Assembly (NCBI GenBank): GCA_049700835.1 | Contig: JBNAUL010000001.1 | Location: 308,043-372,042 of the forward strand | DNA length: 64,000 nt | Direction of reading: 5' to 3' | Source of the DNA: Candidatus Woesearchaeota archaeon | GTDB taxonomy: Archaea > Nanobdellota > Nanobdellia > Woesearchaeales > WAPY01 | Notes under the pieces: model-generated | The model's database searches: none | Told to the model about the DNA's origin: nothing | Seen by the model: only the letters and a program-made list of their open reading frames with translations | In this document: positions 1-34,919 of the stretch, piece after piece | Layout: each line of letters opens with the position of its first letter | How positions within the stretch are numbered: position 1 is the stretch's first letter | Translations under genes and position numbers: made by a program

Positions 1-178
1 GTAATTTTGGTATGGTTGAGGTTTATTTGGATGGTTTGAGGTCTAGGGTTGATAGTGTTTGGAGGGGTTTGGGTAGGGTTGCTCCTGTTTTTGAGCGTCG
101 TTTGGTTTCTCGTGATGAAGTTTTGCGTAGTGTTGAGGAGGCTAGGAGGGAGAGGCAGAAAGCCATAAAAGAAGAAAA
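1..178 (+). repeat. Exact copy of 4456-4633 (T/G-wobble block; probably extends upstream of window)
   Basis: Direct base-by-base comparison, offset 4455. Confidence 0.95.
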
Positions 179-1164: not shown

Positions 1165-1297
1165 GGAACTGCTGGACTGGATAGATAACAAAATTAAGAA
1201 GAGAATTTTTGCCAATAGGAGTCATGCTTTTGAATTTTTAATAGCAAGATTGATGGAAAACAACAAGCTTCAGAGCGAAGATGAAAACAAGAGATAA
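1133..1297 (+). CDS. Second RHH protein, 54 aa (not in ORF track)
   Basis: Manual translation MKERITITLNEELLDWIDNKIKKRIFANRSHAFEFLIARLMENNKLQSEDENKR. It overlaps both neighbours and shares 45 identical nt with the first RHH (1066-1110 = 1199-1243). Confidence 0.8.
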   Translation: MKERITITLNEELLDWIDNKIKKRIFANRSHAFEFLIARLMENNKLQSEDENKR

Positions 1298-4200
1298 AAC
1301 CAAAGATTTAGGAAAAGGGAAAAACTTGAAAAATCTTAAAAAGCATTTTGACGAAGGCGGATTTAGGGCAACATTTTATGCCTTGCTGGCAGCAATACTT
1401 GCAATCCTTGCAATAATTGTTCTCATACATATTAAGAATTACATTGGATATATGGCACTTCAAACAAGAGCAGGTTCAATCTCTGAATTGAAGATTGACC
1501 TACGATTGCCAGCATCGATATGGAGCGGATTTTACGGTTTAGGGCTAATGGTTCCTGGATATACAGAACAACAACTTGATGTTGCAATTGGCAATACAAT
1601 TAAGAACAAGCACTTGGTTTTTGACTGCTTGAAATACGATGAAGAAAATCCTCCTGAAATTTATGCTTCAACCTCTCCTGTCATTCTCTGGGAAACACTA
1701 AGCCCAGCAACAACAGACATGGTTGACAATTACTTGGAAGTAAGCCCTGATTACATAATGTCAGGCACAAATACCTTCACAACGACTATGACAATAAGAT
1801 TAGGAGATAGAAACATAACAAACATTCCAGCAACACATACTAAAAAATTTGGAGCTCCTGACAGCATGCTCTTTGACATTGGAGTTTTGAGAGACGCAAA
1901 CAACAACTTAGTTTTTGTAACTCATGTTACAGACTATGTCAGGGGCTTTAACAACGAACTTGTAAACTATCAAATGCTACTTCCTGTAAAATCAGATACG
2001 ACACCTGTTTATTATTTCTTTAGAGACCCTTATGAGGAGTGTCCTGCAGGCCCAGCACCAGCAGTAAATACTACTTTGTATGGTTATGTTTTTGACAACG
2101 AAACATTGGAGGCATTAGCGAATGTTACAATAAGGATACAAGGAATAGAAGCCCTGACAGACGAGAATGGATTTTACAACATAACAGCATTGGACGGAAC
2201 TTATAACTTGTTTGGTTCAAAAGAAGGTTATCATAACTATATAACAACAATAAATTTGACACCTGACAACTCAAGCACTCCTGAGAGAGAAGACATAAAA
2301 GAATTCAACTTTACAATGCGAAAAATACATGGTCTTGAGTTTGGTAACGGGACGCTTAAAGGTATGGTAACAGATTCAGGTTCTAAACAGCCGTTAATCA
2401 ATGTTTCAATAATCATAGCAGGAATTTTAGTCTATACTAATACTTCAGGAGAATACGAAATAAACCTTACAGAAGGCAACCACACATTAATCGCTTTAAA
2501 ACAAGGATACAAAGATTTTTACAATTTTAGCGTTCCTGTAATAAGAAACAATGTTACAAATTACAATTTCTCAATGACCCTGTTGCCGCCACCGCAAGAA
2601 GCGCAAATCCAAAAGACAGGAACAACAGAATTCACTTCCAATGCCCCTCAAGTCCCTCCGCAGATACAGGAACCTATTGAGATAATAGACCACATAGTTT
2701 CAATGAGAATGATAGATGAGCAACTTAGAAAGGACTCTTTCATTGACAGATTGATGACTATAAAAAGTTACAAGAGAACAACAGCGCAAATAACATTGTC
2801 TGTTTTAGGAGATGTCGCTGATATGGTTCTGCTTGATAAATCAAAATTGATAATAGAACCACAAGGAAGCGAGAACTTAAGCATAAGATTGTTGGCAAAC
2901 AAAGAGCCAGGAATCTATGAAGGGGTTTTGGTCATGCAAGGTGATTTTGAGGATAGAATACCTATAAGAATTATTGTCTATGAAAAAGAGAGGTTGCCAA
3001 TTGAATCAATGCTTATAAAAGTAACTCCACTCAAAGATGTCATAAGCCCTGGAACTGATTTAAAGTTCAGGGTTTCATTAACTAATTTGTTGAAAGAACA
3101 GTACTACAATGTGACTTTGAAATACTATTTGATAAATGAAAAGACAAACGAATCAATATTCTTAGGAGATGATTATGAGATACTGCAGACCTCCTTATCA
3201 TTAATAAAGTCCTATAAAACAAATAGTACAATAGAAGAAGGTTTTTACAGAATTGAAGTTAAGACAGAATACTTAAACTTTGAATCCTATGCAAGTACAA
3301 TCATAAGAATAGCAAAACCATTCTACATGTATGCCCTGTTCGGCATTCTCCCTCTATGGCAATTGTTCCTGATAATTTTGGTGGGTTCTATATTGAGTTT
3401 TGCTTATGTTCGTTATCGTGTTTTTAGGAGGTCTAGGCTTAGGTATGGTGTTTCTGTTGATGTTAGGAGTTTGCGTCGTGTTTCTGATAAGTTGGGTTTT
3501 GTTGGTAAGGTTGCTGAGGTTGGTGTTCCTTTTTATTTTGATTTGAATTTGTTGTCTACTCATTGTATTGTTGCTGGTGCTACTGGTGGTGGTAAGAGTG
3601 TTGCTGCTCAGGTTTTTGTTGAGGAGTGTTTGAAGCGTGGTGTTGGTGTTTTGGTTTTTGATCCTACGGCTCAGTGGTCTGGTTTTTTGAGGGCTTGTTC
3701 TGATGTTAGGATGTTGGGTTTGTATTCTGGTTTTGGTTTGCGTAGGGGTGATGCTCGTGGTTTTCCTGGTAATGTTCGTTTGGTTAGGGATGCTAGGGAG
3801 GTTGTTGATGTTAGGCGTTTTTTGAAGGCTGGTGAGATTAATGTTTTTGTTTTGAGTAGGTTGGAGCCTGAGGATATTGATTTTTTTGTTGCTAATACTG
3901 TTCGTGAGGTTTTTAGGGCTGGTTTTGATGAGTTTGGTGGTTTGCGTTTTTTGTTGGTTTATGATGAGGTTCATCGTTTGTTGCCTAGGTTTGGTGGTTC
4001 TGGTGAGGGTTTTGTTCAGATTGAGCGTGCTTGTCGTGAGTTTCGTAAGTGGGGTGTTGGTGTTGTTTTGATTAGTCAGGTTTTGTCTGATTTTGTTGGT
4101 GAGATTAAGGCTAATATTAATACTGAGGTTCAGGTTAGGACTCGTGATGAGGGTGATTTGCAGCGTGTTCGTGAGAAGTATGGTGAGGAGTTTTTGAGGG

Positions 4201-5081
4201 GTTTGGTTAGGGCTAGTGTTGGTACTGGTTTGTTTGAGAATCCTGTTTATAATGGTGGTAGGCCTTTTTTTGTTAGTTTTAGGCCTTTGTTGCATAGTGT
4301 TTCTAGGTTGTCTGATGGGGAGTTGGATGCTTATGATCGTTTTAATGGTTTGGTTGATCAGTTGGGTTTTGAGTTGGATTCTTTGGAGGGTTTGGGTGTT
4401 GATGTTTTTGATTTGCGTTTGGAGTTGAGGTTGGCTTTGGATAAGTTGAAGGTTGGTAATTTTGGTATGGTTGAGGTTTATTTGGATGGTTTGAGGTCTA
4501 GGGTTGATAGTGTTTGGAGGGGTTTGGGTAGGGTTGCTCCTGTTTTTGAGCGTCGTTTGGTTTCTCGTGATGAAGTTTTGCGTAGTGTTGAGGAGGCTAG
4601 GAGGGAGAGGCAGAAAGCCATAAAAGAAGAAAAGAAGGCAAAGGGAGAAGAGGAAGCATCAGAAGAAGAATTTAAAGAAGAAACAACCGAAGAAACAGAA
4701 GAAAATAACAACAAAAAGGAAAATAAAGAAGAACAGAAAAATCAAGATGTCAATAAAGAAAATAAAAACCTTGAAAACCAGAATGAAAAAAATGAAATTA
4801 AACCTGATAAAATTGAACTTTTGAAAAAGGAAACAGAGCCGCAATTCTATTTTGTTTTGGAAAATGGAAAACAACTCAAGAGCATTTACGATTTAATTGA
4901 GGAATTAGAAATTATGAGTGATGATGTTTTTTATCATCATGTTAATGATTTTAAGAATGATTTTGAGAATTGGGTTAGGTTTGTTTTTTTGAACAATGAA
5001 TTGGCTGATAAGATTTCAAAAACCAAAACAAAAAGAGACATGTTAAAAGCGATGGGTGAGTATATTGGAAGAAGCAGTTGA
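1281..5081 (+). CDS. Membrane-anchored HerA/FtsK/VirB4-like (DUF87-type) ATPase with extracellular subunit-like and Ig/carboxypeptidase-regulatory-like domains and a C-terminal DUF5752-like domain
   Basis: N-terminal hydrophobic segment, two GxVxD..T..xxNVxI repeats, a TM near 3330-3410, Walker A GATGGGKS, VFDP, Walker B LLVYDEVH, REFRKWG, ISQ and HHVNDFKNDFENW. Confidence 0.85.
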   Translation: MKTRDKTKDLGKGKNLKNLKKHFDEGGFRATFYALLAAILAILAIIVLIHIKNYIGYMALQTRAGSISELKIDLRLPASIWSGFYGLGLMVPGYTEQQLDVAIGNTIKNKHLVFDCLKYDEENPPEIYASTSPVILWETLSPATTDMVDNYLEVSPDYIMSGTNTFTTTMTIRLGDRNITNIPATHTKKFGAPDSMLFDIGVLRDANNNLVFVTHVTDYVRGFNNELVNYQMLLPVKSDTTPVYYFFRDPYEECPAGPAPAVNTTLYGYVFDNETLEALANVTIRIQGIEALTDENGFYNITALDGTYNLFGSKEGYHNYITTINLTPDNSSTPEREDIKEFNFTMRKIHGLEFGNGTLKGMVTDSGSKQPLINVSIIIAGILVYTNTSGEYEINLTEGNHTLIALKQGYKDFYNFSVPVIRNNVTNYNFSMTLLPPPQEAQIQKTGTTEFTSNAPQVPPQIQEPIEIIDHIVSMRMIDEQLRKDSFIDRLMTIKSYKRTTAQITLSVLGDVADMVLLDKSKLIIEPQGSENLSIRLLANKEPGIYEGVLVMQGDFEDRIPIRIIVYEKERLPIESMLIKVTPLKDVISPGTDLKFRVSLTNLLKEQYYNVTLKYYLINEKTNESIFLGDDYEILQTSLSLIKSYKTNSTIEEGFYRIEVKTEYLNFESYASTIIRIAKPFYMYALFGILPLWQLFLIILVGSILSFAYVRYRVFRRSRLRYGVSVDVRSLRRVSDKLGFVGKVAEVGVPFYFDLNLLSTHCIVAGATGGGKSVAAQVFVEECLKRGVGVLVFDPTAQWSGFLRACSDVRMLGLYSGFGLRRGDARGFPGNVRLVRDAREVVDVRRFLKAGEINVFVLSRLEPEDIDFFVANTVREVFRAGFDEFGGLRFLLVYDEVHRLLPRFGGSGEGFVQIERACREFRKWGVGVVLISQVLSDFVGEIKANINTEVQVRTRDEGDLQRVREKYGEEFLRGLVRASVGTGLFENPVYNGGRPFFVSFRPLLHSVSRLSDGELDAYDRFNGLVDQLGFELDSLEGLGVDVFDLRLELRLALDKLKVGNFGMVEVYLDGLRSRVDSVWRGLGRVAPVFERRLVSRDEVLRSVEEARRERQKAIKEEKKAKGEEEASEEEFKEETTEETEENNNKKENKEEQKNQDVNKENKNLENQNEKNEIKPDKIELLKKETEPQFYFVLENGKQLKSIYDLIEELEIMSDDVFYHHVNDFKNDFENWVRFVFLNNELADKISKTKTKRDMLKAMGEYIGRSS
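3393..4633 (+). repeat. T/G-wobble block covering the whole ATPase domain; shared with upstream paralogue
   Basis: By manual reading all codons in 3393-4571 end in T or G. The last 178 nt are duplicated at 1-178. Confidence 0.85.
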
Positions 5082-5265
5082 TATTCCGGAATCAAAGTAT
5101 TTTGTTTTAAAAGACGGAAAAAGATTAGCTTCAATTCAAGAGTTAGTTGAAGCTTTAAGGGTTATAAGTGATGATGTTTTTTATCATCATGTTAATGATT
5201 TTAAGAATGATTTTGAGAATTGGGTTAGGTTTGTTTTTTTGAACAATGAATTGGCTGATAAGATT
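4917..5265 (+). repeat. 99-bp exact direct repeat (4917-5015 = 5167-5265) encoding the DUF5752-like core
   Basis: Direct comparison, offset 250; the first 25 codons all end in T/G. Confidence 0.95.
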
Positions 5266-5619
5266 GGCAAGTTTAAAACAAGAAATGATATCCTGCTGGA
5301 ACTGCAGAATTATGTTTTAAAAAATAAACAGAACAAGCAAGAAATAAATCAGATTAAAAAGAGCGATTTGCCAAAAGAAGATAAAAATCCAAAAATCCTA
5401 GAGTTGGAAACAAGATTAGAAAGCATTAGAAAGAGAATATCAGAACTTAGAAAGCAGGGTTTTGATACAAAAAATGCAGAACTTATGATTTTGATGGTTC
5501 CCCCAAGGATAAGGTTTGCAGAGATAACATGTAATGAAATTGATTTTTTCAAGGCAGAGCAGAGCATAAAGAATATTGAACTAGAACTGAAAGAAATTGA
5601 GAGTTCAAAACCAAACTAG
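5056..5619 (+). CDS. DUF5752-like domain protein with C-terminal helical region
   Basis: YFVLKDGKRLASIQELVEAL...FYHHVNDFKNDFENWVRFVF..ELADKI. Confidence 0.75.
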   Translation: MSILEEAVDIPESKYFVLKDGKRLASIQELVEALRVISDDVFYHHVNDFKNDFENWVRFVFLNNELADKIGKFKTRNDILLELQNYVLKNKQNKQEINQIKKSDLPKEDKNPKILELETRLESIRKRISELRKQGFDTKNAELMILMVPPRIRFAEITCNEIDFFKAEQSIKNIELELKEIESSKPN

Positions 5620-17387: not shown

Positions 17388-20300
17388 ATGATGAAAGCAA
17401 AGTTGATGCACAAAAACAAGAATAAAAATCAGAAGAAAGCATTAGAATTTTTATCATCGGTCCTGTCATTAGTTTTATTTTCATTTTTAGTAATGTTCAG
17501 CATCTTAGCGCAAATAAGAACAGTGTTTTCTGAATTAGAGCAATTAAACAATAGAGTAATAATGTTGGATAAAAAATACTACCAACTAAATGAAACAGTA
17601 GAGATAAAACTTAAATATTTAATAAGAGACGCAGAACTATTCATAAAAACTCCAACCCACAACTATAAATTTTTAGGAAGTTTAGAAGAACGGATAAAAT
17701 TTGTTTTAGAGGAAGAAGGTACTTATGAAATTGTATTGATGAAAAATCAAAAGGTTATAGATAATGTTGCTTTTAGCGTGAATAAGACAAAAACATATTC
17801 TGAAATAATAACAAACAATGAAACAAAAGAAAAAGAGTTTGGCAAAACAGCACAACAAATTACAGATCTAAACTGTATAAAAATAGAAAAAGAAAATTTT
17901 TTCTTAGGAGAAGCAGTTAAAATTCAAATCAATAAAAACATAATGAATGATGAAGATTTAAAAGGAAAATTAGGATTAAAGATAATAACAAATGAAGGAA
18001 CTTACTCCATTTTAGGTGAGATTAGTGAAGAAGTAAATTTTATTCCTTCAATAGAAGGAGAAAGCTTGATAGTGCTTTATCATATCAACGGCACAGCAAT
18101 ATGCGAGAGAACATTTTTTGTAATTTCAAAATTAAAAAAGGCAGGAGAAAACTTATCAAAAACAATAGGCATTGCAGAACAGAATGAAACAATCAAAGAA
18201 AAAAATGAAAGTCAGTTGTTCATCTCTAAAAATGAATCATTAAAGTTAAGAGAAAAAGAGGATTTAATCAAGAGCAAATTAAGGGTTAGGATAAAAAACA
18301 AGAAAAACGAACTTTCAGATGCTGTTCTGAATTTTGAGTTCTTTAATGAAACAGAAAATACTGAAGCAAATCAAGATAAACCGCAAGAAAAATTTAGGAG
18401 AATTGTTTTAAACATAAATAACTCTGAATTTAAAAACATAATCATAGAAAATACAATTATGAAAGAAAACTCAAATTTAACATTTGAGGAACTTTCTATT
18501 GAAAACAAAAAAATTATAAAAGACAGGTTTGCTAGAAAAACATTCTTAATTAATTATGAAAAAGCAAACTTTTCAAACTTGATAATAAGAGCAGAAGCAA
18601 CAGGCAATGAACTTTGGGTTTGCGAGGATTGGGATTTAATTAATAATTCTTGCAATGAGGAACCAAAAAAAGTTCTTGATCTAAATTTAGGAGAAGAATT
18701 TGAATTAAACATATCAAAAGAACAAATAATAGAAGGAAGAAACATTCTTTATTTTGAAACAATAACAATACTTAATCCAATAACATTTTTAAGAGATAAT
18801 GAAGTTTGGGTTGTTGAATTCAATACAACAGGCATTGCAGATTTAAGAATTAGCTCAAATAACAGCAACTGGGCAGAAATAAACAATGATTTAGAAGAAA
18901 CTATTGATGAAATGAAATTCCTTGATTTAAAATGCGGCGATAAATCATTAAAAGATAAAATTAAAGTTGTTGATTATGAAGGAAACATTAAAGGATTATT
19001 AGAAATACGGGAAAATGAAAGTTTTAGAATACAAAAATTTATTGTGGAGAATTATAGTTGCAACGAAACATCTTACTTTAGTAATTTAATGCTTAAAGCA
19101 GGATATGCTGTTTTAAGATTTGACTTTGGAGAACAAACTGCATACGCTATAGATCCGTTAGTAAATATCTCAAATACTAATATAACATCTTTAGATATGG
19201 CTATTTTAGATGAGGAAACTTTTGTTGTTGCTTATTGTGATGATACTAATGATAGGGTTGCTTTTAGGGTTTATAATACTAATGGTAGTTTGGTTTCTGG
19301 TGAGGTTGTTGTTGATTCTAGTTTGGCTGTTAGTGCTTGTGATTATACTAGTGTTTCTGTTTCTGCTTTTAATAGTTCTCATTTTGTTGTTGGTTGGGTT
19401 GATAGTGGTAGTTCTTATGTTAGTTTTGAGGTTTTTGATGTTTTTGGTAATGTTTTTGGTAGTAGGGTTGATGTTGATACTACTGCTGGTACTTCTAGGA
19501 GTGTTTCTGTTTCTGCTTTTAATAGTTCTCATTTTGTTGTTGGTTGGTATGATCAGCCTGATGCTGATGCTACTTTTAGAGTTTATACTAGTTCTGGTAG
19601 TGCTGTTACTAATGCTATTGATGTTGATACTAATGCTGGTACTTGTAATGCTGTTAGTGTTTCTGCTTTGGATAATGTTAATTTTGTTTTTGGTTATTAT
19701 GATATGGCTTCTTCTGATGTTACTTTTAGGACTTATACTAGTTCTGGTGGTGCTGTTAGTGCTATTACTGATGTTGATACTGATGCTGGTGTTGGTTCTT
19801 TTAGTGTTTCTGTTTCTGGTGTTAATAGTTCTCATTTTGTTATTGGTTGGTTTGATCAAACTTCTGGTTATGTTAGGTTTAGGTTGTATTCTGTTTATGG
19901 AACTATTGTTGGCACTGAGGTTGTTCCTGATACTGCTGTTGGAACAACAGCATCAGGAGTAATGCAGGATGTTGCTGCTATTAACCAAACGAGTTTTGTT
20001 TATTCTTGGTTTGATAGTATAGCAGATGTTGGAACTTTTTTCAGCACTTATTCAACATTTGGGGTTACTACGCCAACAGCGATTGTTAGCAATATTTCTG
20101 TACTGAATAATTCATTAAAATATCATGCTGTTGCAGGTTATCAACCATCAACCAACATTGGTTTTTGCCAAGGAAACAAGTTTGTGATTGCATTTGTAAA
20201 CACAACAGGATTTTATTGGAAAACATATTTTACTAATGGAGCAGAATGGGATGGAATTTGTCCTGATTTAACTCCACCAAATGTTACTTTGATTTATCCC

Positions 20301-23300
20301 TCAAACAATACTTTGCTTGAACAAAAAAATGTTGATTTTAATTTCACAGTTTATGATAAAAAAACACTGATAATTCCAAATTGCAGTTTATGGGCTAATT
20401 TTACAGGAGTTTTTCAAGAGATTGCAACAGTTTACAACATAAGCATAAATACAATAACCAACATAACAATGAATGACTTAGAGGATGGTTATTATGTTTG
20501 GAATGTTAAATGCTATGATGGTTCAAACAATTCAGCATTTGCAATCAACAATAATACGCTTATTATAAATTTTTACCCTCCAAATATTTCTAATCCTGAA
20601 ATAAATACAACAACAATAAATCAATCAGAATTTATCAAATTTAACGCAACAATAACAGACGAGTTTGGCATAAGTTATGCTTTTATAACAATAAAGTATC
20701 CAAATGGAACTTACAAAAACATTTCATTGGTTAAAAACAATGATGAATACTACATAAATTTTAATGATACTATTCAGCTTGGAATTTACAACATAACCTT
20801 CATATGGGCTAATGATTCATTTGGAAAATCAAGCAACCAAAGTTTAAACCTTTATTTTCAAGTGGTTCCATCACCCCCTTCAGAGTTTGATTTAATATCT
20901 CCTTATAATAAAACAGAATCAAAGAATTTAGTTCCAACATTAACATGGCAACAGACACAAGAACAAACCTTTGCTAATTACACAATACAAATCTCAAAAG
21001 ATTCAAGTTTTACAACAATTGATTATGCTTACTATACTTTTGAAATAACAAACACTTCTTATACAGTTGATTATGCTCTCGATGCTAACTCAATGTATTA
21101 TTGGAGGGTTATTGCATACGATGTTTTCGGAAATTATAGGATTTCAACTAATTATTTTGTTTATATAACAGATACAATAAGTCCAACAATAACCTTGATT
21201 TATCCTGAAAACAACACAATCCTGAGCCAAAATCAAATAACATTCAAGTATGTTCCTAATGATGCAAATACTCTGAATACATGCGCTCTTTATGGTAATT
21301 TTTCAGGAAGTTTTTCAAAAATAGTTGAAAGCAACAACATAACAAAAGGAGTTGAGAATAATTTAACAACTACAATAGTTAATGAAGGCATATTCGCTTG
21401 GAATGTTTGGTGCAACGATACAGCAACAAACAACGGTTTTTCAACTCAGAATTATACTTTAATGCTTGATTTTTCACCTCCAAAAATAAACTTGATGTAT
21501 CCAAATAATAATTCAATTGAAAACGAGACAAACATTATAACCTTTATCGCAAATGCAACAGACACTTACAGCAACATAAGTTTTTGCGAGTTAATAATCG
21601 ATGGAGAAATAAAAGATACTAATTATGAAATAACAAGAGGAGTTTCATTCAATTTCACAGTTTTCTTGCAAAATGGAAACTATACTTGGAATGTAAATTG
21701 CACAGATACAAATGGTTTTGAGAACTCCTCAGAAATATTTAATCTTAGTATTTTTGTAATAGACGCACAACCGCCATTTATAACAATAAACAGCCCAAGA
21801 AACAACACATTCTTGTCGTATGATACAATTTTAATAAACTATACTCCTCAAGATTCAACAGGAATAGAAAATTGTTCTTTAATAATGAACAATGCTATAA
21901 ATCAAACAGATTATGAGATTGAAAATTTTGTTCCTAACTATTTTACAATAATTTTAGAAGAAGGGATTTACAATTTTAAAATAGGATGTTATGACAATAG
22001 TTCAGAATTCAACTATGCAGAAACAGAAGAATACACATTAATTGTTGATTTAACAAATCCAGCAGTGCTTCTTGAATTTCCAGAGAACAACTCTTATTCA
22101 AGATCAGAAGTAAGCTTCGCATACACTCCTATTGATTTAAACTTAGATAGTTGCATCTTGTATGGAAATTTTAGCGGCATTTGGGAAGAACAAGCTTATG
22201 ATAACAGTCCAATAAACAACAATTCAAACGAATTCTCAAGAACATTAAACGATAGCATTTTTGTTTGGAATGTTTGGTGCAACGATAGTTCTGGAAGGAA
22301 TAGTTTTGCATCAGAAAATTTCACTATAAAAGTGGATTCAACATCTCCATTTTATTACAACAACATATCATATCCTGAAACGCCAACAACTTACGAGCCA
22401 AATAAAGAATACTATTTCATTATAAATTGGAGTGATAACTTTGGAATAAAAGAATTAGTGATAGAGCAGAATTTTACAGGACAAATATTAAATATAACTT
22501 TAATAAATTTAAGCATTGAAAATGAAAGTCAATCTAACAGCACAATATCTTATAATTATTCCTTGCAAAATCTAAACGCTTCAATCTACTATTATAAATG
22601 GTATGTAACAGATTTCAACAACAATACAAACTCAACGCCAAAATACGATTATGTTGTGGAAAAATCAGATTCAGAAATAAAACTAAAACTAAACGGGGTA
22701 GAAAACAACATAACAATAGACGAAGACAACTATGTTAATATAAGTGCCGAGGTTATAAAACCAATAACAGGTTACTTGGAAATATATGTTAATAATGATT
22801 TAATTGCTTTTGGAAACTCTCCATTGTCTATAAATTACTTTTTTGAGGATCCAGGAATTTATAATATAACAGCAATTTACAACCAAACAAATAATTACAA
22901 ATTATCTTATGCAACATACTTTTTAACAACAAACGATATTACTCCCCCAAACATAAACCTAACACAACCTTCTCAAAGTGCTTTGATTGGATATGCAACA
23001 ATAAATTTCAACTATATTGTCTATGATAAGAGCAATTTAAGCAATTGCAGTTTAATAATTAACAGCACAATAAACAAAACAAACTACAATGTAAGTGTTG
23101 GAGAAGTAAACACATTCACGCAAATTTTTGAAGAGGGAAACTACTCTTGGAAAGTTGAATGTTACGATATTTTTGGAAATTACAACATTAGCGAAGAGAG
23201 AAACTTTACTTACATAAAATCAGATAAAATAATTGGTTATGCTCAAACATCAAAACCGCAATACCAAAAAGGAGAGCCAGCAATATTAATTGCTAACACA

Positions 23301-26048
23301 ACAGATATCTTTGGAAGTCCATTGATAACTAATGTAACAAAAGCAGATGTTATATTTGGAAACACAACAGTAGATTGGTGGAACACTTCTTGGATTTATA
23401 GAAAACAGATTTTTATAAATAATTCTTTTAGGGCTCCTATTTATAAAACAATTGATTTAAACATTTCTGGAATATCAACTTACATAAATAGTTGCGAAGA
23501 GTTAAGAATAGTGCAAACAAATGGTTTTAATCATACTTTAATTCCTTCACAAATAGTTAGTAATAGCAGCAAGACTTGGTGCGTTATAAGATTTAATGCT
23601 AACTTAACAAAGCTTGGCTTAAATGATAATTATTGGCTTCATTATGGAAATCCAAATGCAAGCTCAACAGGACAAACAGTTAGTTTAGCAGGACTAAAAA
23701 TTCAGAGAAATTGGTATTCGATGACAACAACTTCTGCAACAATAAACATTGAACCGGTAAATGTAAATAATGCGTTTGTTATGCTTACAGTAAATATTGC
23801 AAGTTCTCTGCCTTCAAGATCAGAAATAACAGCAAGAATTTCTGCAAGTAATCAATTATTGTTTGAAAGATATGCTGCTGTTACAACAGCAAACATTTCT
23901 TGGCAGGTTGTCGAGAGTTCTGAAATAAGCGTTCAGAGAGCAACAGTTTCTTTTGCAACAACTCAACTCAATGCAACAATAAACTTAAACAACGAGGTTA
24001 ATTTGAACGAATCGTTCATAATAGTTCTTGGAAGGGCTAATTCAGGAACAGCAGGAAACAATAATCAAGGATTCTTTAGAGCGATGTTTTTGAACTCAAC
24101 AACAGTTTATGTTGAAAGAGCAACTTCAGGAAGTGCTGCAATAGCAGAATTACAAATTATTCAGTGGAGTGGAGCAAGAGTTCAAAGCGGTAATTTTTCG
24201 TTTTCAACTTTAGAATACAATATAAGCGTCGGCTCTGTTAATTTGTCAAGAGCATTCTTAATCTTTGGAACTGCTGTTTCAGGAGTAAGCACAATAGATG
24301 GAAATTACATTAGAGGAAATATAACCAATCAAACAATATTGAGATTCTATAAAGAAACAACCTCTGGAACAGCATACATAAGTTGGTTTTTAGTTGAGAT
24401 GCCTGAAGAGTTTGATGTACAAAAAAACTCATCTCAGATAACAGCAGACGCAAACATAGCAATAAATCCTGTTGTGATGCAGAAAGCATTCCATGTACAA
24501 TCTTGGTCAGCAACAACAGCAACAACAACTTACACAAACGGCTTCATGAGATTTGAATTGAAAAGTCCAACAAACTTTTGGGCTGATGTTGTTGCAGGAA
24601 CAAATACAAAGAAAATTGTTTCTTTTATAGTAGAAGAAAAATCACTTAATGTAACATTAGGAGTGCAGCAAGAATTCAAAAAAGAATCTTCTGGAGAAAC
24701 AGATATTTACGGAATATTTACTTTTGATTGGAGCACTAAAAATCAGAGTTTAGGAACTTACAGTTTAGTTTTTATTGCTGAGAAAGAAAATTTTACCACA
24801 ACAAGGGCTTACAATACTTTTGAAATAATTCCTGACACTACAAAACCAACCGTGACTTTACTGCTGCCAGAAGATAACTATACAACAGGCGTTGGCTACA
24901 TAAACCTTTCATACATTCCATTTGATTATAACTTGGCCAACTGCACCCTGTACATAGGAAACGAATATTCCTTTAATCCTAATGTTACAAATTCAAGCCC
25001 ATTAAATAATGAAACAAATTATTTCAACAATGTTTTCTTTAGAGTTGGAATTTATTATTGGAATGTTAAGTGCGAGGATACAGAAGGAAACTTTGGATTT
25101 GCAACACAGAATTTCACACTGAACATTTCAGGTCCTGACTTAGTAATAACGCCTGAAAGAATATTCTTCAATGAGACAAACTCGTCTGAAGGTTCTAACA
25201 TAACTGTTTTTGCAAACATAACAAACTTAGGACTAAGCGATGCTGATAAACCATTCATTGTTCAGTTTTATTATGGTGATCCTGACTTAGGAGGAACACA
25301 ATTGAATTCAAACATTACAGTTCCAAATCTTTCAAGAAACAATTTTATAATTGTAAACACTACTTTTATTGTAAAACCAGGAAACAACAACATCTTTGCT
25401 GTTTTAGATCCAAACAACATAGTTAATGAATCAGATGAAACAAACAACAAAGCAAACAAGAGCATCTCAATACCAATATATCAGTATTATTATGGCAATA
25501 TAAGCGTGGAAATAATGTTAGGAGATTATTTAAATAAAACATTATTAAAAGTTGAAAGTTCAGAAACAAACTATGGTAACATAATAATATCAGATGTTGA
25601 TTCTTCCTTCTCATTCAATGATTTAATTCCATTAACAAGAAACATAAACAATCAAAAAACAAACAACGATTTTACGGATTTAGACATAATACTAAATACA
25701 AGCGATGCTAATGATTCCATAAAGAACACTTGGGGTTTAGGAACAGACGATCCTATAGCAATTGCAACATTCAATATTTCAGGGAGAATTATCGATAATG
25801 TTCCAATAATAAACTCAACAAATAACCCCAACTTCATAACAGGAATTCTTTGGGATAAAGCAGACGATTTATCCAACAATTACCAATTTGATTATAACAA
25901 CAAAGAAGATATAGTTTTCGTTACAAAAATAAATCCTAAAAAACAAGGCGCTTATGGAATTTATGATTATGAAATAAGAATTCCATCGCTGCTAAAAAAC
26001 TATAAATCAGGAACATCTTTGGTTAATTTTTATGTTGAGATTATCTGA
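17388..26048 (+). CDS. Giant secreted surface protein 2 (2,886 aa): signal/TM, beta-propeller, Ig-like repeats, FN3-like, DUF2341-like, lectin-like repeats, CARDB-like, terminal subunit-like domain
   Basis: Single long ORF with SVSAFNSSHFVVGW blades, YYWRVIAYD, WWNTSWIYRKQI...YGNPNAS, PDLVI...VNESDETNN, and the ending LVNFYVEII; very many NxS/T sequons. Confidence 0.9.
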   Translation: MMKAKLMHKNKNKNQKKALEFLSSVLSLVLFSFLVMFSILAQIRTVFSELEQLNNRVIMLDKKYYQLNETVEIKLKYLIRDAELFIKTPTHNYKFLGSLEERIKFVLEEEGTYEIVLMKNQKVIDNVAFSVNKTKTYSEIITNNETKEKEFGKTAQQITDLNCIKIEKENFFLGEAVKIQINKNIMNDEDLKGKLGLKIITNEGTYSILGEISEEVNFIPSIEGESLIVLYHINGTAICERTFFVISKLKKAGENLSKTIGIAEQNETIKEKNESQLFISKNESLKLREKEDLIKSKLRVRIKNKKNELSDAVLNFEFFNETENTEANQDKPQEKFRRIVLNINNSEFKNIIIENTIMKENSNLTFEELSIENKKIIKDRFARKTFLINYEKANFSNLIIRAEATGNELWVCEDWDLINNSCNEEPKKVLDLNLGEEFELNISKEQIIEGRNILYFETITILNPITFLRDNEVWVVEFNTTGIADLRISSNNSNWAEINNDLEETIDEMKFLDLKCGDKSLKDKIKVVDYEGNIKGLLEIRENESFRIQKFIVENYSCNETSYFSNLMLKAGYAVLRFDFGEQTAYAIDPLVNISNTNITSLDMAILDEETFVVAYCDDTNDRVAFRVYNTNGSLVSGEVVVDSSLAVSACDYTSVSVSAFNSSHFVVGWVDSGSSYVSFEVFDVFGNVFGSRVDVDTTAGTSRSVSVSAFNSSHFVVGWYDQPDADATFRVYTSSGSAVTNAIDVDTNAGTCNAVSVSALDNVNFVFGYYDMASSDVTFRTYTSSGGAVSAITDVDTDAGVGSFSVSVSGVNSSHFVIGWFDQTSGYVRFRLYSVYGTIVGTEVVPDTAVGTTASGVMQDVAAINQTSFVYSWFDSIADVGTFFSTYSTFGVTTPTAIVSNISVLNNSLKYHAVAGYQPSTNIGFCQGNKFVIAFVNTTGFYWKTYFTNGAEWDGICPDLTPPNVTLIYPSNNTLLEQKNVDFNFTVYDKKTLIIPNCSLWANFTGVFQEIATVYNISINTITNITMNDLEDGYYVWNVKCYDGSNNSAFAINNNTLIINFYPPNISNPEINTTTINQSEFIKFNATITDEFGISYAFITIKYPNGTYKNISLVKNNDEYYINFNDTIQLGIYNITFIWANDSFGKSSNQSLNLYFQVVPSPPSEFDLISPYNKTESKNLVPTLTWQQTQEQTFANYTIQISKDSSFTTIDYAYYTFEITNTSYTVDYALDANSMYYWRVIAYDVFGNYRISTNYFVYITDTISPTITLIYPENNTILSQNQITFKYVPNDANTLNTCALYGNFSGSFSKIVESNNITKGVENNLTTTIVNEGIFAWNVWCNDTATNNGFSTQNYTLMLDFSPPKINLMYPNNNSIENETNIITFIANATDTYSNISFCELIIDGEIKDTNYEITRGVSFNFTVFLQNGNYTWNVNCTDTNGFENSSEIFNLSIFVIDAQPPFITINSPRNNTFLSYDTILINYTPQDSTGIENCSLIMNNAINQTDYEIENFVPNYFTIILEEGIYNFKIGCYDNSSEFNYAETEEYTLIVDLTNPAVLLEFPENNSYSRSEVSFAYTPIDLNLDSCILYGNFSGIWEEQAYDNSPINNNSNEFSRTLNDSIFVWNVWCNDSSGRNSFASENFTIKVDSTSPFYYNNISYPETPTTYEPNKEYYFIINWSDNFGIKELVIEQNFTGQILNITLINLSIENESQSNSTISYNYSLQNLNASIYYYKWYVTDFNNNTNSTPKYDYVVEKSDSEIKLKLNGVENNITIDEDNYVNISAEVIKPITGYLEIYVNNDLIAFGNSPLSINYFFEDPGIYNITAIYNQTNNYKLSYATYFLTTNDITPPNINLTQPSQSALIGYATINFNYIVYDKSNLSNCSLIINSTINKTNYNVSVGEVNTFTQIFEEGNYSWKVECYDIFGNYNISEERNFTYIKSDKIIGYAQTSKPQYQKGEPAILIANTTDIFGSPLITNVTKADVIFGNTTVDWWNTSWIYRKQIFINNSFRAPIYKTIDLNISGISTYINSCEELRIVQTNGFNHTLIPSQIVSNSSKTWCVIRFNANLTKLGLNDNYWLHYGNPNASSTGQTVSLAGLKIQRNWYSMTTTSATINIEPVNVNNAFVMLTVNIASSLPSRSEITARISASNQLLFERYAAVTTANISWQVVESSEISVQRATVSFATTQLNATINLNNEVNLNESFIIVLGRANSGTAGNNNQGFFRAMFLNSTTVYVERATSGSAAIAELQIIQWSGARVQSGNFSFSTLEYNISVGSVNLSRAFLIFGTAVSGVSTIDGNYIRGNITNQTILRFYKETTSGTAYISWFLVEMPEEFDVQKNSSQITADANIAINPVVMQKAFHVQSWSATTATTTYTNGFMRFELKSPTNFWADVVAGTNTKKIVSFIVEEKSLNVTLGVQQEFKKESSGETDIYGIFTFDWSTKNQSLGTYSLVFIAEKENFTTTRAYNTFEIIPDTTKPTVTLLLPEDNYTTGVGYINLSYIPFDYNLANCTLYIGNEYSFNPNVTNSSPLNNETNYFNNVFFRVGIYYWNVKCEDTEGNFGFATQNFTLNISGPDLVITPERIFFNETNSSEGSNITVFANITNLGLSDADKPFIVQFYYGDPDLGGTQLNSNITVPNLSRNNFIIVNTTFIVKPGNNNIFAVLDPNNIVNESDETNNKANKSISIPIYQYYYGNISVEIMLGDYLNKTLLKVESSETNYGNIIISDVDSSFSFNDLIPLTRNINNQKTNNDFTDLDIILNTSDANDSIKNTWGLGTDDPIAIATFNISGRIIDNVPIINSTNNPNFITGILWDKADDLSNNYQFDYNNKEDIVFVTKINPKKQGAYGIYDYEIRIPSLLKNYKSGTSLVNFYVEII
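19218..19964 (+). repeat. 747-bp T/G-wobble beta-propeller module, copy 1
   Basis: Matches 33114-33860 with one mismatch seen (G19251/A33147). Contains an internal 48-bp exact repeat (19350-19397 = 19500-19547). Confidence 0.95.
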
Positions 26049-32912: not shown

Positions 32913-34919
32913 ATGAGCAAACAAAAAACAAACAAAAACAAGCAGGAAAATAAATCAACAAAAAATGCTCTTAAAAAAATAATTTTTGTAAGTTACTTTA
33001 TTGAAACTTTAATCATAATCTTCTTTTTCAATCCATTATTAGTTTCAGGAGTAACAACAACCTTCTCTAATAATCAAATTACATCTCTATCTTTAGCAGC
33101 CTTAACAAGAAACACTTTTGTTGTTGCTTATTGTGATGATACTAATAATAGGGTTGCTTTTAGGGTTTATAATACTAATGGTAGTTTGGTTTCTGGTGAG
33201 GTTGTTGTTGATTCTAGTTTGGCTGTTAGTGCTTGTGATTATACTAGTGTTTCTGTTTCTGCTTTTAATAGTTCTCATTTTGTTGTTGGTTGGGTTGATA
33301 GTGGTAGTTCTTATGTTAGTTTTGAGGTTTTTGATGTTTTTGGTAATGTTTTTGGTAGTAGGGTTGATGTTGATACTACTGCTGGTACTTCTAGGAGTGT
33401 TTCTGTTTCTGCTTTTAATAGTTCTCATTTTGTTGTTGGTTGGTATGATCAGCCTGATGCTGATGCTACTTTTAGAGTTTATACTAGTTCTGGTAGTGCT
33501 GTTACTAATGCTATTGATGTTGATACTAATGCTGGTACTTGTAATGCTGTTAGTGTTTCTGCTTTGGATAATGTTAATTTTGTTTTTGGTTATTATGATA
33601 TGGCTTCTTCTGATGTTACTTTTAGGACTTATACTAGTTCTGGTGGTGCTGTTAGTGCTATTACTGATGTTGATACTGATGCTGGTGTTGGTTCTTTTAG
33701 TGTTTCTGTTTCTGGTGTTAATAGTTCTCATTTTGTTATTGGTTGGTTTGATCAAACTTCTGGTTATGTTAGGTTTAGGTTGTATTCTGTTTATGGAACT
33801 ATTGTTGGCACTGAGGTTGTTCCTGATACTGCTGTTGGAACAACAGCATCAGGAGTAATGGTATCAACAGGAGCGAGTTCAAACCAAAAAATAATCTTTT
33901 CATGGCATGACACAACAACAGATGTTGGAGTTGCTTTAAGAACTTACAACCTTGATTTAACTCAATATTCAAGCGAAATTCCAGTGCAAAGCAATTCATT
34001 AAGATACAACGCTTTAACAGGTTATCATCCTGCAACAGGAATTAGAATTTGTGATGGAAATTTTGTAATAGCAGTTGTAAATTCAACAACCCAAGCATTC
34101 TTCAGAACTTATTATGCGAATGGAACAGAATGGAATGGAACATGCTCTAATTCAGCGCCAAACATAACAAAAATTTATATAGATGACGAGATAACAAACC
34201 CTAGTGGGGAGATTGATTTAACAGCAGGAAGTTCAAAAATAGTTTATTGCAATGGAACAATAAGCGATTTAGAAGGTTATGATGATATAAAGAATGTTTC
34301 AGCAGTTCTGTATGCTTCTGGAAGCGGAGTTTTGCCAACTGATTCTGAGAACAACAACACGCTTTACAAAAATAACACTTGCTCTCTATCATCAGGGTTT
34401 GAAACAACAAAGAAGAACTTTAGTTGCGCTTTTAATGTTTTGTACTATGCTAATAATGGAACTTGGACATGCAATGCAACAACATATGATAATAGCAATG
34501 CTTATTCAAGTTCAACAAACACTACAAAAATAAATATTTTGGTTGCTTTGAATGTTTCAAATGCAATAATAGATTATGGAATCTTGGGTCCAGGAGAAAC
34601 AAGCCCTTCATCTTCCCAACTAACAATAACAAACCTTGGTAACATAAAAATTGATTTAGTGCTTAACGGCACAAACATGAGTTGCAATCCTATTGGTTCA
34701 ATCTTTGTTGAGAACCAACACTACAATATTACAGGAACAGACCAAAGCTATGATTTAATGAGAGCTTTAACATTAACTCCTTTCACAGCAACAGACTTTG
34801 ATTTAGATAAGAGAGTAACAGCAGAATCAACAAGAACAACATATTGGCGCATAAGAATACCTGCAGGAGTAAAAGGATTTTGCCAAGGAAACATAACTTT
34901 AGCCGTGCAAGCAGGATAA
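32913..34919 (+). CDS. Secreted adhesin-like protein: beta-propeller module plus family B Ig/pilin-like domains
   Basis: Signal/TM, propeller shared with giant protein 2, ending YWRIRIPAGVKGFCQGNITLAVQAG. Confidence 0.85.
   Translation: MSKQKTNKNKQENKSTKNALKKIIFVSYFIETLIIIFFFNPLLVSGVTTTFSNNQITSLSLAALTRNTFVVAYCDDTNNRVAFRVYNTNGSLVSGEVVVDSSLAVSACDYTSVSVSAFNSSHFVVGWVDSGSSYVSFEVFDVFGNVFGSRVDVDTTAGTSRSVSVSAFNSSHFVVGWYDQPDADATFRVYTSSGSAVTNAIDVDTNAGTCNAVSVSALDNVNFVFGYYDMASSDVTFRTYTSSGGAVSAITDVDTDAGVGSFSVSVSGVNSSHFVIGWFDQTSGYVRFRLYSVYGTIVGTEVVPDTAVGTTASGVMVSTGASSNQKIIFSWHDTTTDVGVALRTYNLDLTQYSSEIPVQSNSLRYNALTGYHPATGIRICDGNFVIAVVNSTTQAFFRTYYANGTEWNGTCSNSAPNITKIYIDDEITNPSGEIDLTAGSSKIVYCNGTISDLEGYDDIKNVSAVLYASGSGVLPTDSENNNTLYKNNTCSLSSGFETTKKNFSCAFNVLYYANNGTWTCNATTYDNSNAYSSSTNTTKINILVALNVSNAIIDYGILGPGETSPSSSQLTITNLGNIKIDLVLNGTNMSCNPIGSIFVENQHYNITGTDQSYDLMRALTLTPFTATDFDLDKRVTAESTRTTYWRIRIPAGVKGFCQGNITLAVQAG
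33114..33860 (+). repeat. 747-bp T/G-wobble beta-propeller module, copy 2
   Basis: Offset 13896 from 19218-19964. Confidence 0.95.

Follow-up and report, generated by a model that had tools for sequence, protein, structure and literature searches.

A 64,000-nt window of the genome of a Candidatus Woesearchaeota archaeon (contig JBNAUL010000001.1, positions 308,043 to 372,042, forward strand) contains two coding repeats, each with near-identical copies, in which nearly all codons end in T or G. One is a propeller-like repeat in surface-protein genes, the other a HerA/FtsK-like ATPase repeat. We identify both, with high confidence, as GRINS (genetic repeats with intense nucleotide skews), and as far as literature searches could find they are the first archaeal examples. 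The recoding begins abruptly at the 5' edge of each repeat and fades towards its 3' edge. Our preferred reading, to which we give a probability of roughly 55%, is that this soft 3' edge belongs to a segment which is homogenised by recurrent gene conversion and whose sense strand is driven to G+T at selectively free sites. Positions below are those of the window unless a contig (C1 to C4) is named.

Results

The propeller-like repeat and its 3' tail

The genome (G000; 1.07 Mb, 32% G+C, 98.66% complete) is assembled with gaps in four contigs. Across its 745 open reading frames (ORFs) of at least 150 aa, the wobble positions are A (.37), T (.32), G (.17) and C (.15). The wobble composition of the propeller-like repeat is T 0.88, G 0.08, A 0.04 and C 0.00, and its mean skews are +0.43 (GC) and +0.49 (TA). 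Copy 1 (19218..19964, plus strand) lies within a 2886-aa surface-protein ORF (17388-26048) with CARDB/Big domains, and copy 2 (33114..33860, plus strand) within a 668-aa ORF (32913-34919). The copies are 747 bp long and 99.87% identical, with a single mismatch at 19251. Both are in frame inside two different paralogous genes, in which the flanks on either side are homologous but diverged.

A fully recoded core (19218..19897, plus strand), with one codon per amino acid, starts at a sharp 5' edge that is found at the same place in the sister species G001, and all 117 of its 117 four-fold codons end in T. The soft 3' end (19857..19964, plus strand) covers the last 36 codons and is the same in both copies. 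The first-pass annotation of this DNA had counted one codon ending in A or C among the first 213 of the repeat's 249 codons and ten among the last 36, and a recount of 19218-19964 gives exactly these figures. The hypergeometric P for finding at least 10 of the 11 A/C-ending codons there is 1.2e-8.

That annotation had also called the tail 'unconverted', a description which is not supported. G000 and G001 have letter for letter the same last 8 codons and the same two isolated A-ending codons, so the tail is old, and it also forms the complementary arm of a hairpin. This hairpin (19925..19958) has 16-nt arms (19925-19940 and 19943-19958) with 14 of 16 positions paired and a 2-nt loop, and its centre is the point at which codons switch from T/G-ending to A-ending. 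The left arm consists of the last recoded codons, and the right arm of the seven A-ending tail codons, their complement. The same hairpin is found in copy 2 at 33821-33854, and G001 keeps it at 13/16 by hand count. Among 14 tract regions, the only other such hairpin lies upstream of the 5' edge of C2 430813.

The ATPase repeat and other recoded families

The second repeat (1246 bp; Pfam DUF87/HerA) has its copy 2 at 3388..4633 (plus strand, in ORF 1281-5081), which is 99.84% identical to C1 306975-308220, with 2 differences in 1246 bp. The last 178 bp of copy 1 open the window (1..178, plus strand) and are 100% identical to 4456-4633. The wobble G+T fraction is 0.98, and the skews are +0.64 (GC) and +0.52 (TA). 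The tail reported in the first-pass annotation is present, with six A/C-ending codons at 4614..4631 (plus strand) that are the same in both copies. The large proteins of ORF 1281-5081 and of the gene ending near 500 contain CarboxypepD_reg-like domains and finish with a transmembrane helix followed by the HerA/FtsK-like ATPase domain. Many of the order's genomes have such ATPase genes in adjacent pairs (G019, G028, G031, G035, G038, G040).

Four repeat families in the genome are strongly recoded: the ATPase, the propeller, a DUF5752-like repeat and the domain repeat dom204 (C1 204795 and C1 206850, 261 bp). The DUF5752-like repeat, which had been annotated as 99 bp, is 104 bp long (copy 1 at 4912..5015 and copy 2 at 5162..5265, the latter in ORF 5056-5619; both plus strand), and the copies are 99% identical. 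Two further repeats are partly recoded (C2 429833/431112 and C2 351387/351701). An 'Sm-like pair' (29385-29555/31275-31445, 89% identical), which codes for a small conserved peptide and had been put forward as another case, is not recoded, with wobble G+T of 0.55 and 0.50.

When 877 ORFs of G000 were scanned, near-pure G/T wobble was found in 22 segments; gene-wide wobble G+T ranges from 0.41 (5th percentile) to 0.57 (95th percentile). Sequence repeated at 90% identity or more makes up 1.04% of the genome and contains 56.9% of the tract bases, a 55-fold enrichment (one open-ended contig 3 tract added), and 51.7% of repeat bases are recoded.

Polarity of the recoded tracts

The relative position of A/C-ending codons was tested (Mann-Whitney) in 10 coding repeat families, taken from 19 repeat pairs, of which nine were excluded because they do not code, are of low complexity, are tandem or have no clear frame. 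The mean is 0.74, 0.86, 0.81 and 0.91 (P 8e-4, 8e-5, 0.15 and 1e-6) in the four strongly recoded families. The last third of the repeat holds 11 of 14 such codons in dom204, 7 of 8 in the ATPase, both of the only two in the DUF5752-like repeat, as the first-pass annotation had noted, and 10 of 11 in the propeller. A weakly recoded minus-strand family (C2 429833-430813) has a mean of 0.57 (P 0.0017), with 27, 44 and 46 A/C-ending codons in successive thirds along its own gene. The mean exceeds 0.5 in 8 of the 10 families, and five further families show no significant trend.

The 5' edges had been described as recoded from the first codon, and recoding does begin at the first codon of identity. 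The edge falls at one and the same codon in the ATPase repeat (copies 1 and 2 of G000, and G001), as it does in the propeller and dom204 repeats of both species. The 3' front moves. At the ATPase front, five codons which end in G in G000 end in A in G001, one of them also switching between Arg and Lys, and the A-ending run begins five codons earlier in G001 than in G000. In dom204, A/C endings occupy 11 of the last 29 codons in G000 vs 4 of 29 in G001. Because the 3' tail is conserved in the sister species, the tails are old soft edges rather than recent extensions of conversion tracts, the alternative which the first-pass annotation had itself named. We hold the polarity, in which the 5' edge is sharp and fixed while the 3' front is graded and can move, to be real, and do so with good confidence. 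By eye, no sequence motif shared across the 3' ends of the families was seen.

Every recoded tract lies in a gene whose direction matches both the local gene majority and the local GC skew. The cumulative-skew minimum agrees with an origin near C1 118 kb. The minus-strand family has its polarity reversed along with its gene, but in no tract does the orientation of the gene depart from the direction of replication inferred from skew, so that 'sense strand' is here inseparable from 'lagging-strand synthesis template'.

Recoding in a sister species

G001, a genome of the same genus, has both the ATPase tract (94% protein identity to G000, wobble G+T 0.96) and the propeller tract (78%, wobble G+T 0.94). 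Where residues are identical between the two genomes, synonymous differences amount to 10 of 176 (6%) in the tract, compared with 107 of 256 in the 5' flank and 159 of 381 in the 3' flank (42%). The protein identity of the propeller tract is similar to that of its flanks (54% and 76%). Since the tract wobble positions are near-frozen at similar protein identity, the recoding predates the split of the two species and is still enforced in both.

The second copies in G001 are cut by contig ends; along the 85-119 nt that are assembled they match the first at 98.3-100% identity. Copies are therefore near-identical within G000 and within G001, which means that each species homogenises its own pair. 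The drive is active in two sister species and is tied to homogenised segments. More distant relatives have homologs (35-55% protein identity) with a wobble G+T of 0.32-0.63, and ATPase paralog pairs in 6 other genomes share 67-81% DNA identity and have ordinary wobble bases.

Effects on codons and residues

Recoded tracts use about one codon for each amino acid: GCT, TGT, GAT, GAG, TTT, GGT, CAT, ATT, AAG, TTG, AAT, CCT, CAG, AGG or CGT, AGT or TCT, ACT, GTT and TAT. In the ATPase tract, T is found at 175 of 177 four-fold sites and 95 of 95 two-fold NNY sites, and G at 122 of 123 two-fold NNR sites. The rule is therefore 'T if permitted, else G', and not mere A>G plus C>T. The Arg codon CGT, which accounts for 1.7% of Arg codons genome-wide, makes up 24 of 52 in this tract. 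The first-pass claim that both copies are recoded equally, with loss of C as well as A, is supported, and the recoding is confined to the sense strand.

The keto (G or T) fraction of the ATPase tract is.70/.64/.98 at codon positions 1/2/3, compared with.45-.55/.39-.49/.32-.63 in 20 homologous copies from other genomes. Against the outgroup consensus the tract has 81 replacements, led by I>V (15), K>R (12), K>V (4) and Y>F (4), and including M>L (3), P>A (3), E>G (3) and Q>E (2). Transversions are required, because the replacements include A>T and C>G changes. Gly (11.0% vs 5.0% genome-wide) and Val (14.0% vs 5.8%) are raised, and Thr (1.7% vs 4.6%), Pro (2.2% vs 3.0%), His (0.7% vs 1.2%) and Gln (2.0% vs 2.4%) lowered; Cys reaches 7.6% in the C3 tract vs 1.3% genome-wide. 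The drive acts at the DNA level, directionally and at all three codon positions, with protein selection as a filter, and is distinct from translational codon choice.

Identification as GRINS

GRINS were defined in 2021 as regions longer than 500 bp that share over 80% identity with a second region of the cluster or genome and whose GC and TA skews, as mean absolute values in 150-nt windows with a step of 30, both exceed 0.15 (PMC8256042). As the main text of that paper describes them, the two skews correlate and peak at third codon positions, with enrichment of Gly, Val, Cys and Trp and reduction of Pro, Thr, His and Gln. GRINS are linked there to gene conversion between paralogous modules, and single-copy skewed regions also occur (PMC8256042).

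The ATPase repeat (1246 bp, 99.84% identity, skews 0.64/0.52) and the propeller repeat (747 bp, 99.87%, 0.43/0.49) exceed each of these thresholds, the genome means for skew being 0.20/0.18. The dom204 and DUF5752-like repeats, at 261 and 104 bp, are below the length cut-off. Compared by sign, not window by window, GC and TA skews are both strongly positive in every tract; genome-wide they are anticorrelated (r = -0.48). The keto fraction peaks at third positions (.98), and Gly, Val and Cys are up and Pro, Thr, His and Gln down. The likeness thus takes in duplication, co-directional skews, the third-position peak, gene conversion and single-copy skewed regions. Unlike the GRINS in the published main text, these elements are in a DPANN archaeon and in surface-protein and HerA-like ATPase genes, not polyketide synthases. 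They also differ in lying in an AT-rich genome, in the dominance of T rather than G, and in a purity of ~98% with one codon per amino acid. Literature searches found no such recoding in archaea, and found GRINS only in polyketide or nonribosomal peptide synthetase contexts. The words archaea, NucS, mismatch, orientation, polar, direction and hairpin do not appear in the main text of PMC8256042, which likewise contains neither conserved edges nor an explanation through repair enzymes.

Authenticity of the repeats

The propeller repeat is also present in contigs of two runs (X1 and X2) from different studies, both labelled as hot-springs metagenomes. Contig depth inside the propeller repeat is about twice that of its flanks, and in X1 the loose ends of contigs fall exactly at 19218 and 19964 and read on into the flanks of copy 2. 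Contigs from two studies, ~2x depth and branch points at both repeat ends together mean that the propeller repeat is not an assembly product.

Discussion

The polar shape and the conserved 3' element of these repeats recall diversity-generating retroelements (DGRs), in which case error-prone reverse transcription of an RNA copy would be primed at a 3' site and its cDNA product would replace the segment. DGRs have been reported in DPANN archaea, and the likeness extends to a repeat pair in which change lies 5' of a conserved end and, at the propeller front, there is a hairpin that recalls the structures at DGR target ends. The propeller tail with its 14/16-bp hairpin is kept in G001, and no hairpin is found at the fronts of the other families. 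However, RVT_1 gave no match (PF00078: 0 matches) in the 98.66%-complete genome, controls being detected in 3 of 14 genomes. Further, the copies differ at just 1 of 747 and 2 of 1246 positions, not at template adenines, and are equally recoded with no template/variable asymmetry; C is lost as well as A; and the tracts, at 0.75-1.25 kb, are several times longer than DGR repeats of ~0.1-0.2 kb. We consider this origin highly improbable. The first-pass annotation had proposed 3' anchoring with synthesis towards the 5' end by analogy with such elements, and of this the geometry fits the shape of the tracts and is also the direction that our own model would need, with DNA in place of RNA and a reverse transcriptase, whereas the RNA analogy is not supported, given the missing RVT_1 and the near-identity of the copies. 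Hardly more probable is the horizontal transfer of a cassette from a donor with extreme G+T codon usage, pasted into both paralogs. Sharp 5' edges, the excess of CGT among Arg codons and the existence of a strongly keto-skewed relative (G036) would suit an import. Yet among 40 relatives no donor with near-identical segments was found, homologs outside G001 reaching at most 54% protein identity. The recoding edges are the identity edges in both copies, and each species keeps its own pair identical. The tracts have not decayed since before the G000/G001 split, and because the recoded state is still enforced in both lineages a passive relic of gene transfer is excluded. An assembly or sequencing artefact might be suspected in a gapped four-contig assembly with tracts at contig ends, but the two-study contigs, the doubled depth and branch points, the presence of the same tracts in G001 and the obedience of the pattern to reading frame leave this with next to no probability.

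Two other explanations are somewhat better placed, though we think each of them unlikely. Damage or tautomer mispairing alone, with C and A deamination of an exposed sense strand giving C>T and A>G, would match the exact loss of A and C on one strand. It would be plausible at the temperatures implied by the hot-springs label of the source runs, and it fits the A/G differences at the ATPase front between species. The GRINS authors offer deamination or keto/enol tautomer mispairing as possible origins (PMC8256042). Transitions, however, would turn the commonest four-fold base, A, into G, where T is observed in both the ATPase and propeller tracts; Y>F and M>L (A>T) and P>A and Q>E (C>G) require transversions; and damage does not explain the restriction to homogenised segments. 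Alternatively, a G+T-rich sense strand may itself be selected, for recombinase pairing, for an unfoldable A/C-poor transcript or for escape from a nuclease, in which case skew would cause conversion. RecA/RadA-type recombinases pair preferentially with GT-rich single strands, tract edges are stable, and wobble bases are frozen in two species as they would be under purifying selection. The GRINS authors, too, suggest that gene conversion becomes more frequent through skew (PMC8256042). Such selection would have to outweigh a protein-level cost at dozens of residues, and it gives no reason for T over G at four-fold sites besides AT pressure, nor for a graded 3' edge that shifts between species; no function for a G+T-rich strand is known.

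We favour recurrent gene conversion with a sense-strand drive towards G+T. GC-biased gene conversion in multigene families such as mammalian histone paralogs offers a parallel, since there too paralogs in concerted evolution acquire an extreme silent-site composition with a slight protein shift. That process favours G:C over A:T and is strand-symmetric, whereas here G and T are favoured over C and A on one strand, and a strand-specific bias needs a one-strand process.

A possible source of such a bias, which we suggest tentatively, is one-strand synthesis whose errors are filtered by EndoMS/NucS. This is the sole mismatch repair enzyme found in G000 (C2 421881-422216, 124.7 bits); MutS_V was not found. 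Recombination-associated DNA synthesis is mutagenic, and this link would tie recoding to homogenised repeats. EndoMS binds and cuts G/T, G/G and T/T mispairs, T/C moderately and A/G, A/C, A/A and C/C hardly (PMC4838380). In mycobacteria, oligonucleotide-made G-T mispairs are removed and A-C mispairs escape (PMC11551744), and wild-type Corynebacterium glutamicum with EndoMS accumulates on the leading strand 48 A>G vs 13 T>C changes, traced to C/A mispairs made on the other strand (PMC6159521). Mispairs composed of G and T are removed and those composed of A and C are not (PMC4838380; PMC6159521; PMC11551744), and wild-type cells gain A>G and C>T on the lagging-strand template. The published effects differ from ours in that, as those reports present them, they are genome-wide and mild, come from bacteria and in vitro work, and carry no link to repeats, GRINS or codon recoding.

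Under this proposal, error-prone synthesis would be templated repeatedly by the sense strand, most likely during recombination between copies. The new antisense strand would start at variable points on the 3' side and always run to the 5' end of the homology. After the EndoMS/NucS filter, the surviving template-strand changes would be A>G, A>T, A>C, C>T, C>G and G>T; G>A, G>C, T>C and T>A would be repaired, and T>G partly repaired. T would become nearly absorbing and G second, with A and C lost, which predicts the order T > G >> A, C. The codon table and the amino-acid drift are what filtered one-strand synthesis predicts. The 3' tail would be the annealing or invasion zone of variable starts, kept identical by pairing and rarely resynthesised.

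Several observations weigh against this account. For the NucS step, we infer both the strand that is copied and the filtering of errors, and the model leaves the one-directionality of synthesis without explanation. GRINS are reported in phyla that mostly use MutS/MutL, as described in the main text of PMC8256042, so NucS is not their sole cause. A hairpin at the front is seen in the propeller family alone. In G000, the repeat C2 345316-345505 (pair 346414) is 100% identical yet has a wobble G+T of 0.58, that is, repetition without recoding. Conversely, keto-rich tracts without repeats are found at C3 113680-115707 (676 codons) and C2 27-527, both at contig ends.

Skewed sequence in two relatives points the same way. 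G039, from another family, has multi-gene keto islands of 3-7 kb in single-copy housekeeping genes (loci L056-L075, e.g. C1 191617-194148, C2 72743-75869 and C3 60825-68289), in which the sense strand is ~65-72% G+T. The genes include a probable alanyl-tRNA synthetase, a phosphoglycerate mutase-like gene and sugar epimerases, and no repeats were detected in the 399 kb examined. In G036 the plus strand is 55-62% G+T over ~120 kb (L029-L042; C1 25-149 kb and C2 0-70 kb), a regional skew. Neither genome has repeat pairs by which tails could be defined, so neither provides an independent replication of the polarity, and many of their hits to the G/T-wobble pattern are antisense frames of A-rich genes. 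NucS is present in 21 of 41 relatives, and the top seven genomes by number of 40-codon G/T-wobble pattern hits all have it, an association between NucS and tract abundance that is suggestive. The hit count is noisy and includes low-complexity DNA and antisense frames of A-rich genes, three of the seven top genomes belong to one family, and the NucS-negative G035, G029 and G025 each have ~100 hits.

A wider and more doubtful proposal is that GRINS in general are the footprint of one-strand-templated, recombination-linked synthesis combined with mismatch repair that is blind to mispairs composed of A and C. This blindness would be complete in EndoMS/NucS organisms and partial in MutS organisms. 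If true, this would explain both the abundance of GRINS in Streptomyces, which is NucS-type, and the joint GC and TA skews. In this archaeon it would explain T at four-fold sites, the sharp edge at the end of the homology and the soft edge at the start of synthesis, and the polar shape would reveal the direction of copying.

The main text of the GRINS paper presents them as widespread recoding repeats which speed the evolution of antibiotic-synthesis genes, and calls their origin, spread and persistence unknown (PMC8256042). The repeats described here extend the phenomenon to Archaea and to the host-contact surface proteins of DPANN symbionts, and add a polar architecture that this main text does not contain. 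They are also an unusually clean case, with ~98% wobble purity, a small genome, one recognisable mismatch repair enzyme, no reverse transcriptase and an informative sister species. In such tracts synonymous change is near zero and residues are pushed by the drive, so that dN/dS, the detection of transfer by codon usage and gene trees will mislead.

Other features of the genome

Three of the four contigs finish in sequence that is G+T-recoded or mutually similar (contig ends C2 1-539, C2 439057-439470, C3 113680-116013 and C4 1-228). The ends of C3 and C2 share 84% identity, and exact overlaps of 42-55 nt exist with C4 and C3. The assembly breaks were probably caused by recoded repeats which the assembly did not resolve.

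Segments of the mirror type, with wobble positions of A/C only, are single-copy and at most 85% pure; they include C2 318165-320030 (622 codons, the longest) and C1 413138-413722. The genes richest in A/C wobble are the corresponding C2 318006-321206 (plus strand) and C1 413081-413914 (minus strand), which lie on the opposite strand to neighbouring G+T tracts. In these two genes, NNY codons end in C at 110 of 146 and 31 of 43 sites, and NNR codons in A at 159 of 163 and 56 of 58. Possibly they reflect this drive in weak mirror image, but we do not class them with the G+T tracts. Their codon habit (72-98%) on the opposite strand hints at a DNA-strand rule, although, being impure and unrepeated, they carry little weight.

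Across the whole genome, at 98.7% completeness, ARAGORN lists only 29 tRNA genes, and several anticodons are absent from the list. This shortfall is perhaps due to split or intron-bearing tRNA genes.

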